NCBI GenBank assembly: GCA_964252035.1
Contig: OZ176208.1
Source: Podarcis erhardii
Lineage: Eukaryota
Reading direction: 5' to 3' (one strand)
DNA length: 64,000 bases
Below, piece after piece: positions 9,701-15,700 of this stretch (positions are counted from its first letter, which is position 1; each line of letters opens with the position of its first letter). Position numbers: made by a program.

Positions 9701-12700
9701 CGAGGGAGTCTAAGGCACAGTGGGAGGTGGGTGCGCATAACCATTTTTAAGTATCAAAGTGCTTGTCAGACATCCTCATGTCACTGCAGCCCTACAGGAA
9801 TGTGGGAGAAAATTGCCTCTCGTTGAGTAGACAGCTGCCTAAATCTTCTCCTTTAGACCTCCATCAATTAAAAAGCAAGCAGACTTGATTTTAAGATAAG
9901 AAGCTGAACACTCCGAGAAGATCCCCACCTCCTGTTTGTCTGCTGCTCTCGGGTTGTAACCTTCGATCTTTAGCACTTACTTTGAAATAAGCGCAGCTCC
10001 ATAGTCATCCGCGGGGCTACTTCGTTCCTACGCTATAGTTGCGCGCAAGCGGAAGTCTTCTGGCTCGCGCCGCCAAACGGATCCTCGCCCCCTTGTGGCC
10101 AGTGCGACTCCTGGAGCGCTGCGCCAAGGACGCGCACTCCAGCGTCCTGCTGTGCTTAGGATCGCCGCCTTCATTCCGTCGGAAAGGACACGTCTAGGGC
10201 GCAACCCAATGCGGCCCCCATTTCCTTGGAAGTAAGTCTCATTGTCTTGCACAGAAACCTCTTTTCCAGTCAATAGGATTTGCTGGGTCCGGACGTTGCA
10301 GGGGGAATGAAAGCCGTTGCGCGATGCAGGAAGAAGCTTCTGCTCCGCGGCGTCCGCAGAGGTTACCTCGGGTTTTCGGAGCGGCTCCCAGACAGAAGGG
10401 CTTCGAGGTGCGCCAGTTGGTACAGTTAGCGAAGGTGAGGACACAACCGGCCGGGCAGTACTCCTGCCTAACCTCTTCGACGTGGATCGCTGCCTTGCGC
10501 AGAGCTTTGCCCTCCTCCGCCTGGAGTTGCTTGCAGCGACACAGCTCCGGGCTCGGCGGAGTTTTCCCTGCTGGCTTCCGGGAATACCAGTCGGATCCTC
10601 TCGATTTGCAACCCGGTCAAGCTGCGGCGCAAGCAAGGGGGCTGCAAAAAGCGTGACTGTGTTTGTTTAGTAGGGATTGCTAATCGGCCTGCCCGGGTCT
10701 TTTCTTCCTTCCCGGTGTGAATGGGCTTTTTGTGCGCAACACCGATTTAGTAAAATCCCACCAGATCCGTCCCGCAGCTATTTGATTCGTTGCAATCACA
10801 GGCACCTAGTTCATACGCTCTCTTTCTGAATATTCTTGCATGTAACATAGGACTATATTCTATGCACGTGTGAATAATTACCCACAATAATATGTTGACT
10901 TGGAAGATGCGTTTTCCTGCGCTGTTCTAAGCACACAACAGAAGGAAATAAGCGGTATTTGCATTTGCTTTCAAGAAAATACATGTCTGCCAGTATGCGA
11001 ATATTATTAACCCCTGAGAGGCCTGGATAATATGTGGTTGAATACAGGTCTGCAGTCCACAAGACACATGGGATGGTTCTTATTGCTGGATGTGACAGGA
11101 TTACTGAGGAATAAATTGTGCAGGGCAGATTATATAATTGTCTCTTGAATCCACCCCACAGTATCTCAGGGGCATACAGTATTGTGCTCAAATAAATATT
11201 GCCATGTCTGTATGTGTATCTGTATGTTTACATGTGTGTCTGCTTATCTCGAGTTAGATCTTCAGCTTCAATCTTCACTTCTTTTGCTCTAGCCTAGAGC
11301 ATCCACATTGAATTGACTTGAGTAAGACTTCTGTGAACACCGTCTGGAACCAGCACCTAAGTAGCTGCAGAGCTTCAGAGATTTGCTGCCCAACTCAGCA
11401 ATCCTCCCAGATCTCAGGTTGGGGTGGGGGATGTTTTTCTAAGGGGGTGGGCCACGACCACATGTGGTTCCTCCTTAGCAGCTCCTAGTATTTAGTGGTT
11501 ATGGCTGCACACTTTCCTTGGAGTAAGTCCCATTGGAGACAGGGGGATCTACTTCTGAGTAAACACTGCACTTTCTTGGGAACAGGAAAGTTAGTGGGAT
11601 TTCTTGGCCAGAGCTAACATGCACTGAGCAGTAGTGACTCTGGATGGGCGTATTTTGCTTAAAGCTAATGGAGGTGGTCTAATTTCATACTCATAGAATT
11701 GTTGTTGGAAGGGAACACTAAGGATCATCTAGACCAACCCCCTGCAATGGAGGAATCACAACTAAAGCACCCAAGACAGATGGACTTGGGGTTGATAATT
11801 CAGTTCCAGTTATTGCCAGGCATACAAAGTAACCACACCCACATCCCTCAGTTTTATTGCTGTTTTGTTCAGCAGTCTAATGTCAGTCAGTCAAGTTTAT
11901 GGCTTATAGCCAAAGGCTGATGCAATGTATACAATGTCATTCAATAAAATATATACTAGTTTGATACAAAAACTTAAAACATTTACATTATCAAAACATG
12001 ACCTAATCTGCACAAAGCTAAAATCACCGCGGGGCCACTAATATATTAAAAGTAATGTTAAATAATATAATAGACAATTATGTACAAAGCTTAGTGAGAA
12101 AGATTCAGCTTGGTGTAGATGGGGGCAGTCTAATGTTAAATTTGATCAAGAGCAGCTCCCATTCCTTTCCTCTGGGCCTGGACTGGTCACTTTCCTGTGC
12201 CCAAAGTATTTCTCTTCCTGGCAGGCAATTGCCCCCTTTCGTTGGGTCCAGGGCCAGTTCACCCATGAGGCAAGGAGAGGCAACCACCTCAGACAGCAGG
12301 ATCCACAGGGGCTGCAGCTCCAGCCTCCAAGGACGGCATCAACAGTTGTTGCTGCGGTGACAGTGATGGCTATGGCTGGCTCTGCCATCTCCTTAGCAGC
12401 CCCCCCCCATGCTACTTCTATAGCAGACTCTTGGCAAATAGGAGGCACTGCTGGTCTCCTCCCTCTCCTAGGGAGGAAAAGGTGGGGGCTGCCCTCTGGG
12501 GTCTCCTGGGCATTCGCCTGGCATGAGTCAGAGTGGCATCTTTCCCTTCTGTGGAAACCTTTGATTCCCACTTCTACCATTGAGGAAGGTTGATGTGATT
12601 CTCCCCCTTGTTCCCAATGTAGATCTGCCCCCCCCCTTATTTCTGATGTAGATAGTCACTCATTTCTTCTTCTTTTTTTTTTTTTTTAAATAAATTTTTA

Positions 12701-15700
12701 TTGGGTTTTCAAATTTTTAACATACAAACAAACATATAAAAACAAAACAAAACATCCATAACTTCATAACCTTACTTTCATTACCTTCTTTCATTGACTT
12801 CCCCGCACCCTCCCTCCCACATTCCAATTTCATTAATTATCTCAGCAAGTTATTTCCTCTCATCCCTTAAATATTTCTTATCTTTTCTTAAAATTTGTCA
12901 TTTATGCTTAACCCAGTTTAACTAATCCAATTTTACACAATTAATCTTTTCTCTAAGGACGGCCTAAATTTTCTCCCCTGAATTCCTCCCTTCACATATT
13001 ACACCAAAAAATCATAATATAACAATTCAAAATCTCAGGTTTTAATTATTCTACTCTCCCCTCCCCCCCTGCCCCGGTTTCTGTCCCTTCCCAGACCGAT
13101 GTCCCAATAGGTTAACTGCTTTAGCCCGGGTTTCTCACATCAGAGGCTCTTAAGCCCCAGTTAGTCTCTCTCCACCAGTTTTGTTGATAATCCATTTTGT
13201 TGGCCCTCTCTTCTTGAGGAGGTTCTGTCATCAGCCCCTCACATTTTTCTCCTTCCAAGTCCATCAATATCAGTTCCTGCTCAGGACCACTCAATTTATC
13301 ATACTCCAGCTTAATGAGGAAGTCCCAATCATACTTGTTTACTCTTATATAGTCCAATATTCCAGTTATTCCAGGGACTTCTTCCTTTATCTTTCTCTCC
13401 TTTTGTAGGTTTGTGGGCCACTTGTCATTTTCTTTGTTTCCTTTGTTCCCAAAGGTTGCAGGCTTTTGGTTGATTTTTTCCATCTGAAATTCCTCTCCTT
13501 CTTCCTCTTCTTTTTCCCCCAGTTCCAAAGTTATCTCATCCTCTGCAGCTGCAGAATTTCTTTCCATCAACTTTATATCATTAGCAGAGTTGCTCAGTTC
13601 CAAACCGAAAGTCTGAAGTTGTTTACTCATTGTGATACTTTGCTCTTGTAAAGTTCCCACGAGAAAAAACATCCTTTCAATCTCTGCCCATAATTTCCCT
13701 TCTGCAGCCATTGCAATGTCTTTAGTTCCCTCCAGGGGGATTTCCATCATGATCCTATTCCAACAGTTCGTTACTTTGTTATTCCTTGTTATTCCCAATC
13801 ACTTTGTTTCAAAAAGTTCAATTTTAAAGTAACTCTTTTGGTCCAAAGAGTTACTAATAGCTCAGTTCCAAATCTTTGCCACTCGTTTGACAGCTCTTTT
13901 GACAGCTGTCAAACTCTTTATTCTTTTTCCTCGGGCTCACACGCAGGGCACTCCCGGGTCCAAAGGGGGGGGGGGGATTGCCAAAAAAGAAAAACTTCTG
14001 AGATTTTACTCCTTTCCACTCCAGCACAATAACTTTATAATCCAGTTCGTGAGAACTATTTATTTAAACACCAAAGTCTTTCCGCCTTAGTGCTCCTCTC
14101 CTTGCTTTGAATCTTTCTGTGGGGGGGGGGGAGTGCGGACTTCCTTTTAACACACCCCCGATCGTACTCAATTTTAGGTATAAAACTTTTAGTGCCAAAA
14201 TTTCCTTCTACTCACGGGTTCTTCATTTCAGTCCAAATTTTCAGGAAGAAAGATAGCGCTCTCCGGTCATGGCTCGCGGCTTCGCTCCGCCAAGGCAGCG
14301 ATCGACTCTCAGCGCCACGCCACTCTCCGGTCCACTCCGTAGCCTTTAAAAAGGCTCTTCGCAGGTCGGGGAGGGCGCTTAAGGTGCCCACCGAGTCTCC
14401 ATGTCCGCAGGCTTCAGCGCCTGCGGTTTCTAAGGGTCCCCGTGTCGCCGGCACGGCAAGACCCGTCCTTAGCGGAGCCGATTCCCTCCGGAGCTCGGAG
14501 GGAATCCGCCATTACCCGTTCGCGCTATCCCGGAAGTCTCAGTCACTCATTTCTTCTTACTTAGTTGGTGGGTGTGCCATTTTGTGGTTCATCTCAGGTG
14601 CCAAAATGTCTTGGTCAGGCCCTGGTTGGGTCAATGCCCTGCCATTCTCCACCCAGAGAACTGCTTGGGGCTGCCACCTGAGGCCTCAGACTCTACCATG
14701 TTGTCCAGAACGTTCTAACACCGTATTGCACAAGGAACCGAGGGAGAAAGATCCCAGCCCTGGTTAAATTAAGAATGCTTTGATTTATTTCATTTAAACC
14801 AGTAGCAGAAATCCCCACAAAAGCTGCATTGTTGAGCAGCGGCCTGGGCTGAGATTTGGGGTAATTATTGTATCCTTCCCTTTCTCCCTCAACCCCATCT
14901 TCTTCTAATCATGTGCTCACAAGAGAAGTTTTGTTCCCCACCCCCTGCCAAACCTTCTGGTAAGGAGAGGAGAAACTGCACCCCAGACTGTGGTGCCCTT
15001 GAAGCAGTCACCGTGAGAGAAAGTTTCAAAGCCAAAGAAAACCATACAAGGTAAATTGCTGTGCTGGTTTCCCTTTCTCTTACTCAATATATAGGAAGCT
15101 GGGAGAATAGCCACAGAAAAAGTGCCAGAAAGCATTACAGAAGGCTCCCTCTTTCAGGCGATAATCAGAACCTGGGAAAATGCATGCAGAAGGAGAGGAA
15201 AGTTACAGTTTCCACCAAAATATGTCTAGGGAAATAGTTTCTTTCGTCAACAAATCACCCCAGATAGAGGTTTGGAGTAAGCGGTTCCAGGTCTGTTCCC
15301 CAATCCAAGGTTCAGATCTGCTACACAGTGGGGGTCTTTGCTACAGATTCTGTTTCAACGTTGCCAGTNNNNNNNNNNNNNNNNNNNNNNNNNNNNNNNN
15401 NNNNNNNNNNNNNNNNNNNNNNNNNNNNNNNNNNNNNNNNNNNNNNNNNNNNNNNNNNNNNNNNNNNNNNNNNNNNNNNNNNNNNNNNNNNNNNNNNNNN
15501 NNNNNNNNNNNNNNNNNNNNNNNNNNNNNNNNTCCCCAGCCGAAGCCGGGCTCAGGGCGGCTAACAACACTAAAACAGTACAACATGAAAACAGTTAAAT
15601 AGAAGCATGTCTGTTTTAAGTCTATGCCCGAAATTCTTCTTGCATGGAATGGAGACAGATACAAGTGAATTGCATTACAAGTGAACCAGCATTACAATAA

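Follow-up and report, generated by a model that had tools for sequence, protein, structure and literature searches.

A short LINE-1-like retrotransposed element with a conserved acidic open reading frame in the genome of the lizard Podarcis erhardii

RESULTS AND DISCUSSION

An 1869-bp insertion is bounded by a perfect target site duplication

We analyzed a stretch of 64,000 nucleotides (nt) from the genome of the lizard Podarcis erhardii (contig OZ176208.1 of assembly GCA_964252035.1; hereafter, the window). On its minus strand, at positions 12672-14540, lies an inserted element of 1869 bp that is bounded by a target site duplication (TSD) and carries one open reading frame (ORF), here called ORFx, which corresponds to neither ORF1 nor ORF2 of long interspersed nuclear element 1 (LINE-1, or L1). 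Nucleotide 1 of the element is window position 14540. The 18-bp TSD (AGTCACTCATTTCTTCTT on the plus strand) occurs in two perfect copies, one on the 5′ side of the element (14541-14558, minus strand; AAGAAGAAATGAGTGACT in the sense of the element) and one on its 3′ side (12654-12671, minus strand), and nowhere else within the 64-kb window. Nonsimple exact 18-mers located 200 to 8000 bp apart did not occur in 19 of the 20 block-shuffled versions of the window that we examined and appeared once in the other. In the real window, the TSD copies form the only isolated pair among the 40 of 439 18-mer matches that were listed. The remaining listed matches form runs within longer repeats, except for a pair at 26412 and 27297. 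The members of that pair are 885 bp apart and belong to an imperfect duplicate that extends over ~45 nt beside the 3′ end of a CR1-type LINE; they are probably part of a repeat and not a TSD.

The element ends with a polyadenylation signal, AATAAA (element nt 1839-1844; 12697-12702, minus strand), that is separated by 9 nt from a pure run of A. The initial annotation of this DNA had reported both the signal and a poly(A) tail, and requires only a small correction: the tail (12672-12687, minus strand) consists of 15 A residues (12673-12687) followed by one G that adjoins the TSD. On the priming strand, the sequence at the nick site is 5′-TCTT/AC. The nick consensus of the L1 endonuclease is 5′-TTTT/AA, with which this site agrees at four of six positions, making it a plausible L1 endonuclease site. 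Because the TSD is long, a poly(A) tail is present, and the nick site is plausible for L1, we attribute the insertion to L1-type target-primed reverse transcription (TPRT). The 18 bp of the TSD lie within the length of ~7-20 bp that marks such insertions. The coordinates and the shuffle control thus uphold the earlier description of an 1869-bp insertion with a perfect 18-bp TSD, and its assignment to the L1 pathway agrees as well with the L1-like ends of the element, which are described below. We conclude that the insert at 12672-14540 arose when a 1.87-kb RNA, polyadenylated and with a start of the L1 type, was reverse-transcribed into this site. The insertion looks young, given the perfect TSD, the pure run of 15 A residues, the intact ORFx, and a ratio of observed to expected CpG (CpG o/e) of about 1 at its 5′ end.

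The 5′ region begins like that of a lizard L1

At its 5′ tip, the element has GACTTCCGG, a gap of 17 nt, and ATGGCG (element nt 3-34; 14507-14538, minus strand), an L1-type terminus with ETS-like and YY1-like cores. With gaps of 5 to 30 nt allowed, this composite motif has one match in the 64 kb, at the extremity of the element, and no match in any of 100 shuffles. The ETS motif CCGGAAGT and the YY1-type motif CCGCCAT, which had been noted on the plus strand, are therefore real, and on the strand of the element they read GACTTCCGG-(17 nt)-ATGGCG. A similar arrangement, GACTTCCGGTG-N8-ATGGCG, is the conserved 5′ extremity of the clade-1 L1 families with long 5′ untranslated regions (UTRs) in the anole lizard (PMC5381506; here and below, comparisons with this study refer to the part of it that we covered). 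The element has both cores of that consensus but departs from it in its spacing and in the two bases that follow GACTTCCGG. A second GACTTCCGG at 63598-63606 (plus strand) is followed by neither a CpG island nor L1-like sequence, and we take it to be a chance occurrence.

The terminal motif is located within a CpG-rich, structured region (element nt 1-340; 14201-14540, minus strand) that we regard as a putative internal promoter. Its GC content is 61%, and it holds 34 CpG in 340 nt, out of 51 in the entire element. CpG o/e in 200-nt bins is ~0.9-1.05 in this region and 0-0.65 across the remaining element, in line with the intact, CpG-rich 5′ end that had been claimed. The minimum-free-energy (MFE) fold of nt 1-300 is far more stable than those of shuffled sequences (z = −4.99; 0 of 200 shuffles equally stable). 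Two hairpins that had also been annotated appear in both the MFE and the centroid predictions: one with an 11-bp perfect stem, GATTCCCTCCG/CGGAGGGAATC, and a 5-nt loop (14480-14506, minus strand), and one with an 8-bp stem, CCGCAGGC/GCCTGCGG, and a 6-nt loop (14405-14426, minus strand). The loop region of the 11-bp hairpin holds GAGCTCCG (element nt 45-52; 14489-14496, minus strand). An identical motif is found ~40 bp from the start in all frog L1 families (PMC5381506). We rejected it as a meaningful link to frog L1s, given that 0.76 chance matches are expected per window and the match alone is not significant.

The rest of the leader (element nt 341-790; 13751-14200, minus strand) is CpG-poor and contains two C runs of at least 10 nt and two internal AATAAA. 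Four upstream ATGs occur in the 790-nt leader, every one of them in its CpG-rich part.

The 3′ region is suggestive of an L1 3′UTR

The 3′ untranslated part of the element (12688-13120, minus strand) spans 433 nt, has a GC content of 34% and a C content of 6%, and carries T-rich repeats near its end. When the whole element was compared by blastn with the rest of the window on both strands, the top match (E = 1.3e−7) was the 3′UTR of an L1 fragment. The matching stretch (element nt 1693-1811; 12730-12848, minus strand) is 68% identical to positions 38232-38354 over 125 aligned positions, has the same orientation, and is located near the poly(A) signal. The local alignment score of 39.5 was not reached in any of 300 block shuffles (22.6 ± 3.7; z = 4.5). 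Given the AT-rich sequence, we consider the evidence for kinship of the element’s 3′ end to an L1 3′UTR to be suggestive and not strong. The L1 fragment that served as the comparator (37358-38434, plus strand) is 5′-truncated and consists of the C-terminal 258 codons of ORF2 and the 3′UTR; human L1 ORF2p, in its residues 1049-1236, is matched by the frame at 37358-38134 (plus strand; E = 3.5e−12).

The element encodes no L1 enzyme

Outside ORFx, we scanned 21 of the 40 open stretches of at least 30 amino acids (aa) in the element against Pfam (all 15 of the other stretches on the minus strand and 6 on the plus strand), and found no endonuclease, reverse transcriptase (RT), or ORF1 family among them. 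ORFx itself matched no Pfam family at E ≤ 10. A tblastn search of the element with the C terminus of the window’s L1 ORF2 recovered no ORF2 remnant (best E = 0.19), and Rfam yielded no match at E ≤ 1 in the region 12400-14800. The earlier statement that the element lacks an apurinic endonuclease (APE) and an RT is thereby confirmed. With neither an endonuclease nor a reverse transcriptase of its own, the element is nonautonomous.

ORFx encodes an acidic protein that is unlike ORF1p

ORFx (13121-13750, minus strand) is the element’s single ORF of 40 aa or more. As the initial annotation had proposed, it encodes 209 aa, is acidic (isoelectric point [pI] 4.52; 44 D+E versus 26 K+R), and has coiled-coil character, which we see as an N-terminal heptad helix with a hydrophobic 3-4 repeat in residues 20-48. 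The protein ends in RASDVRNPG directly before the stop codon. An open frame of 209 codons would arise by chance at this base composition with a probability of ~2e−7. ORFx has only 3 CpG in 630 nt; its A content at codon positions 1 to 3 is 36, 43, and 35%, and it is C-poor at all three. The ORFs of lizard L1s are likewise reported to be A-rich and C-poor (PMC5381506).

Pfam searches with 14 members of the ORFx family (ORFx and 13 homologues, introduced below) returned hits for single members only, with best E values of 0.031-0.46, and none to an L1 ORF1 family. In Pfam, the family of ORF1p, a protein made of a coiled coil, an RRM (RNA recognition motif), and a CTD (C-terminal domain), is named Transposase_22. 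A profile search of the PDB with the ORFx family gave no match at E ≤ 10, and a Protein Atlas search with one homologue (P0009) gave only hits of 0.77-0.78, which are under lead level. The null Pfam and PDB profile searches bear out the earlier impression that the protein does not resemble canonical ORF1p.

The -NPG end of the protein brings to mind the 2A, or StopGo, motif, which is D[VI]ExNPG followed by P. We rejected this reading for ORFx: V and N are closer together by one residue than the motif requires, no Pro codon follows, and 5 of the 17 sequences that end in -PG (ORFx included) have D or S in place of N. We speculate that the Pro-Gly-stop end might delay termination or serve as a C-terminal degron.

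ORFx belongs to a conserved protein family

A word-indexed search identified four relatives of ORFx (73, 55, 42, and 39% identity), and a profile built from these four retrieved 13 homologues. An exhaustive HMMER search of 1.84 billion cluster representatives gave 12 at E ≤ 1e−3, with one (P0018) set aside. P0018 has 1336 aa and 12 matched stretches; to us it looks like a tandem-repeat protein that is unrelated and was hit spuriously by the profile. The resulting alignment comprises 20 sequences, namely the ORF of the window and 19 relatives that are 20-73% identical to it. Full length (~170-215 aa), the N-terminal heptad helix, and the conserved end are kept in 16 of the 19 relatives, whereas P0009, P0015, and P0020 are truncated or frameshifted and do not have the -PG end. 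Accordingly, ...ASD[VL]R[NDS]PG stands directly before the stop codon in 17 of the 20 aligned sequences, ORFx included, and the last nine residues, [RKE]ASD[VL]R[NDS]PG (13121-13147, minus strand), are the best-conserved part of the protein. Among these 17 sequences, lengths range from 171 to 215 aa, pairwise identity ranges from 22 to 94% (median, 39%), and the hydrophobic residues 20, 24, 27, 31, 34, 41, 45, and 48 are kept in at least 94%. The conserved start is probably M14 (window position 13712).

Given that the family is conserved, the ORF is not noise, and the alignment indicates that ORFx is a real, conserved gene under constraint. The conservation may extend beyond the stop codon. 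The frameshifted homologue P0015 has a read-through tail in which about 75 nt from the 3′ side of the stop recur; they look conserved too, and at least that portion of the 3′ part would then accompany ORFx elsewhere.

The family looks restricted to lizards so far and has no known domain. Among the 13 profile hits, just one record carries a name: it comes from Podarcis lilfordi, is annotated as a “Hypothetical predicted protein,” and falls in a 90% cluster of six sequences; the other 12 hits sit on contigs of 927-1663 bp. The six-member cluster and the decayed variants are indirect signs of a mobile, multicopy family as opposed to a host gene. In our literature searches, we came upon no account of an element or an ORF of this kind in lizards.

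Possible origins of the element

We propose, giving it an even chance, that the insertion is a young and complete product of LINE-1-made retrotransposition of a 1.87-kb polyadenylated RNA, and that this short form is itself propagating in a manner like that of HAL1. Under this proposal, the RNA would start at an internal promoter of the lizard L1 type, with GACTTCCGG...ATGGCG at its 5′ tip within the CpG island, and would end in an L1-like 3′UTR with AATAAA and poly(A), with ORFx in place of ORF1 and ORF2 in between. The ORF2 protein of an autonomous L1 would insert the element in trans via TPRT, as the TSD, the poly(A) tail, and the TCTT/AC nick site lead us to infer. The short form would persist as a nonautonomous lineage, and selection would keep ORFx if its protein aids the copying of its own RNA. 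The ORFx protein might do so by self-associating via the heptad helix at its N terminus and remaining bound to the RNA or the ribosome of origin; its presence at its own RNA could then allow L1 ORF2p to be captured at the poly(A) tail. The HAL1-like parasite of the initial annotation survives here as an analogy, which holds for the single ORF and the absence of ORF2 and fails for the protein. HAL1 is defined by encoding ORF1p (PMC5753468, in the part covered here), to which ORFx has no likeness.

Several observations weigh against this proposal. The spacing within the 5′ motif is 17 nt, versus TG+N8 in the published consensus (PMC5381506), and the likeness to the L1 3′UTR is modest, at 68% in AT-rich sequence, with the best shuffle scoring 38.5 against the observed 39.5. 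The window contains no second copy of either the element or ORFx. Acidity is a property of the family (pI 4.5 for ORFx; pI below 7 in 15 of the 17 full-length sequences, that of the window included), which argues against a role as an ORF1p-like nucleic acid chaperone. Moreover, the two parts of the element have the dimensions of L1 UTRs. The 5′ UTRs of lizard clade-1 L1s are 792-1465 nt long, with a GC content of 45.2% and a mean of 56 CpG, and their 3′UTRs are 194-570 nt long, with a GC content of 33.1% (PMC5381506, with the 3′UTR values in Table 2). The segment from the 5′ end through the stop codon of ORFx, with 1420 nt, a GC content of 46.2%, and 47 CpG, and the 3′ part, with 433 nt (nt 1421-1853) and a GC content of 33.9%, fall within these ranges. 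The element thus has the look expected of a full-length L1 minus exactly ORF1 and ORF2.

This coincidence of length and GC content in nt 1-1420 and nt 1421-1853 is what would be seen if ORFx were an unannotated gene in the long 5′UTR of a full-length L1, of which the present copy had lost ORF1 and ORF2 before insertion, either because the source copy was deleted or through RNA splicing like that of SpIREs, with copying in trans afterwards. We view such an origin as a serious, though less likely, alternative. It gains from the finding that clade-1 5′UTRs align along the greater part of their length between very divergent families (PMC5381506), since a hidden coding region would explain this, and from the existence of many deeply divergent, low-copy ORFx lineages, which resembles the pattern of lizard L1 families in the same study. 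The 5′UTRs of Anolis clade-1 L1s, as described there, have a pair of CpG islands separated by 300-400 bp and are free of low-complexity repeats, whereas the element has one CpG island, a CpG-poor 630-nt ORF, and two C runs of at least 10 nt. In addition, all homologue-bearing contigs are shorter than 1.7 kb. These differences and the short contigs are our reasons for preferring a propagating short form over an ORFx housed in a full-length L1, although the shortness of the contigs may merely reflect fragmented assemblies. The portion of the literature covered here also mentions no sense ORF in a lizard L1 5′UTR. We found no related protein longer than 375 aa, such as a fused form, but this counts for little, and separate ORFs would not be expected to fuse in any case. 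We tentatively entertain the broader notion that ORFx is a third gene of lizard LINE-1s, located in the long 5′UTR or in an L1-parasitic lineage that diversified alongside. If true, it would explain why lizard L1 5′UTRs stay alignable across very old families, and the Pro-Gly-stop end could couple the ORFx protein to its own RNA through slow termination or a degron.

Two further origins appear less probable. The mRNA-like layout of the element (a leader, one ORF, a 3′UTR, AATAAA, poly(A), and a TSD), its single copy within the window, and the small size of the ORFx family, in which nearly every cluster is on one contig, would suit a processed retrocopy that L1 had made of a host mRNA specific to the lineage; the ETS/YY1 start would then be of an ordinary housekeeping type, and the homologues would be squamate orthologues. 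We find this improbable. The composite 5′ motif lies at the exact extremity, as in lizard L1s (PMC5381506), the 3′ end is like an L1 3′UTR, and the base composition is L1-like at every codon position. A conserved host gene should, we reason, also be present in curated squamate annotations, yet the sole named record among the 13 is called “hypothetical” and has six near-identical members, and decayed variants exist. The coincidence with L1 UTRs in length and GC content might alternatively have come about at the locus, by insertion of a full-length L1 and subsequent deletion of ~4.8 kb comprising ORF1 and ORF2. This we regard as very improbable: no ORF1 or ORF2 remnant occurs in any frame tested, the young look of the insertion leaves little time for a clean loss that spared both UTRs, and the ~75 nt after the ORFx stop recur with ORFx in P0015.

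Comparison with known L1-derived elements

With HAL1, the element shares L1-derived ends, one ORF, the absence of ORF2, and presumed mobilization in trans by L1. HAL1 encodes ORF1p, whereas ORFx is acidic and shows no similarity to ORF1p in the Pfam and PDB profile searches. HAL1 elements have been described in mammals (PMC5753468, in the part covered here), and our literature searches found no report of them in lizards.

The element also resembles the clade-1 L1s of Anolis (Boissinot and Sookdeo 2016; PMC5381506), which share with it GACTTCCGG...ATGGCG, the 5′ CpG island, the A-rich composition, the T-rich 3′UTR, AATAAA with poly(A), and the lengths and GC contents of the parts other than ORF1 and ORF2. 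The element differs from them in having no ORF1 (coiled coil, RRM, and CTD), no ORF2, one CpG island instead of two, and another spacing of the 5′ motif, and a 209-codon ORF like ORFx is not mentioned for these L1s in the portion of that study covered here. ORF0 of primate L1s is a loose parallel, being like ORFx an extra small ORF by the L1 5′ region and apart from ORF1 and ORF2; it is antisense, 71 aa long, and primate-specific (PMC5203782 and PMC5381506, both covered in part), whereas ORFx is in the sense orientation, has ~200 aa, and is conserved down to 22% pairwise identity.

Finally, SpIREs and processed pseudogenes also arise by L1 TPRT on RNA without a functional ORF2 and carry a TSD and poly(A). 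SpIREs are L1 insertions that are spliced or have internal deletions. Both they and processed pseudogenes are dead copies that arise singly and have no selected gene of their own, whereas the element carries an intact ORF from a conserved family.

That HAL1 keeps ORF1p fits the view of ORF1p as a requirement in cis of L1-type RNA. The element keeps a different conserved, acidic protein, which may represent a second way to parasitize L1 or else an overlooked accessory gene of lizard L1s. In either case, it would offer a handle on how L1 RNA is chosen for reverse transcription in non-mammalian vertebrates, in which many old L1 lineages coexist, and ORFx would add a new protein family without a known fold. 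The element, a young insertion with an intact, CpG-island putative promoter near an MSX1-type gene, is also a candidate presence/absence polymorphism.

Other features of the window

An open frame at 619-1257, on the minus strand like the element, looks like an MSX-type exon 1. We take it to be exon 1 of MSX1, of which the homeobox exon would lie past the start of the window. The element is located ~11.4 kb upstream on the same strand, and the initial annotation was right that its putative promoter points toward the MSX1 domain, provided that the frame is indeed that of MSX1. The element also has an AATAAA of its own.

A CR1-type LINE occupies 27312-31995 (minus strand). Its ORF1 (30772-31995) has a GDSL esterase domain, and the LINE further contains an APE (29798-30688) and an RT fragment (27312-28088); its presence explains why the GC/AT skew is strong at 28-32 kb. 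A dispersed repeat with the core GGACTAGATGACCC / GGGTCATCTAGTCC, presumably of the squamate short interspersed element (SINE)/CR1-tail type, is found, in both orientations, at 8247-8306, 11704-11763, 15917-15982, 28931-28990, 41546-41611, 42224-42289, and 59685-59750. Runs of N are present at 15369-15532 and 43186-43341.

In the region of the truncated L1 (36897-38497, plus strand), the AATAAA is followed by a TATC/TA microsatellite tail and not by poly(A). The 13-mer AGACACACTATCA occurs at 36897, 37398, and 38485, and the flank shows local duplication, a pattern that suggests a TSD plus a later segmental duplication.

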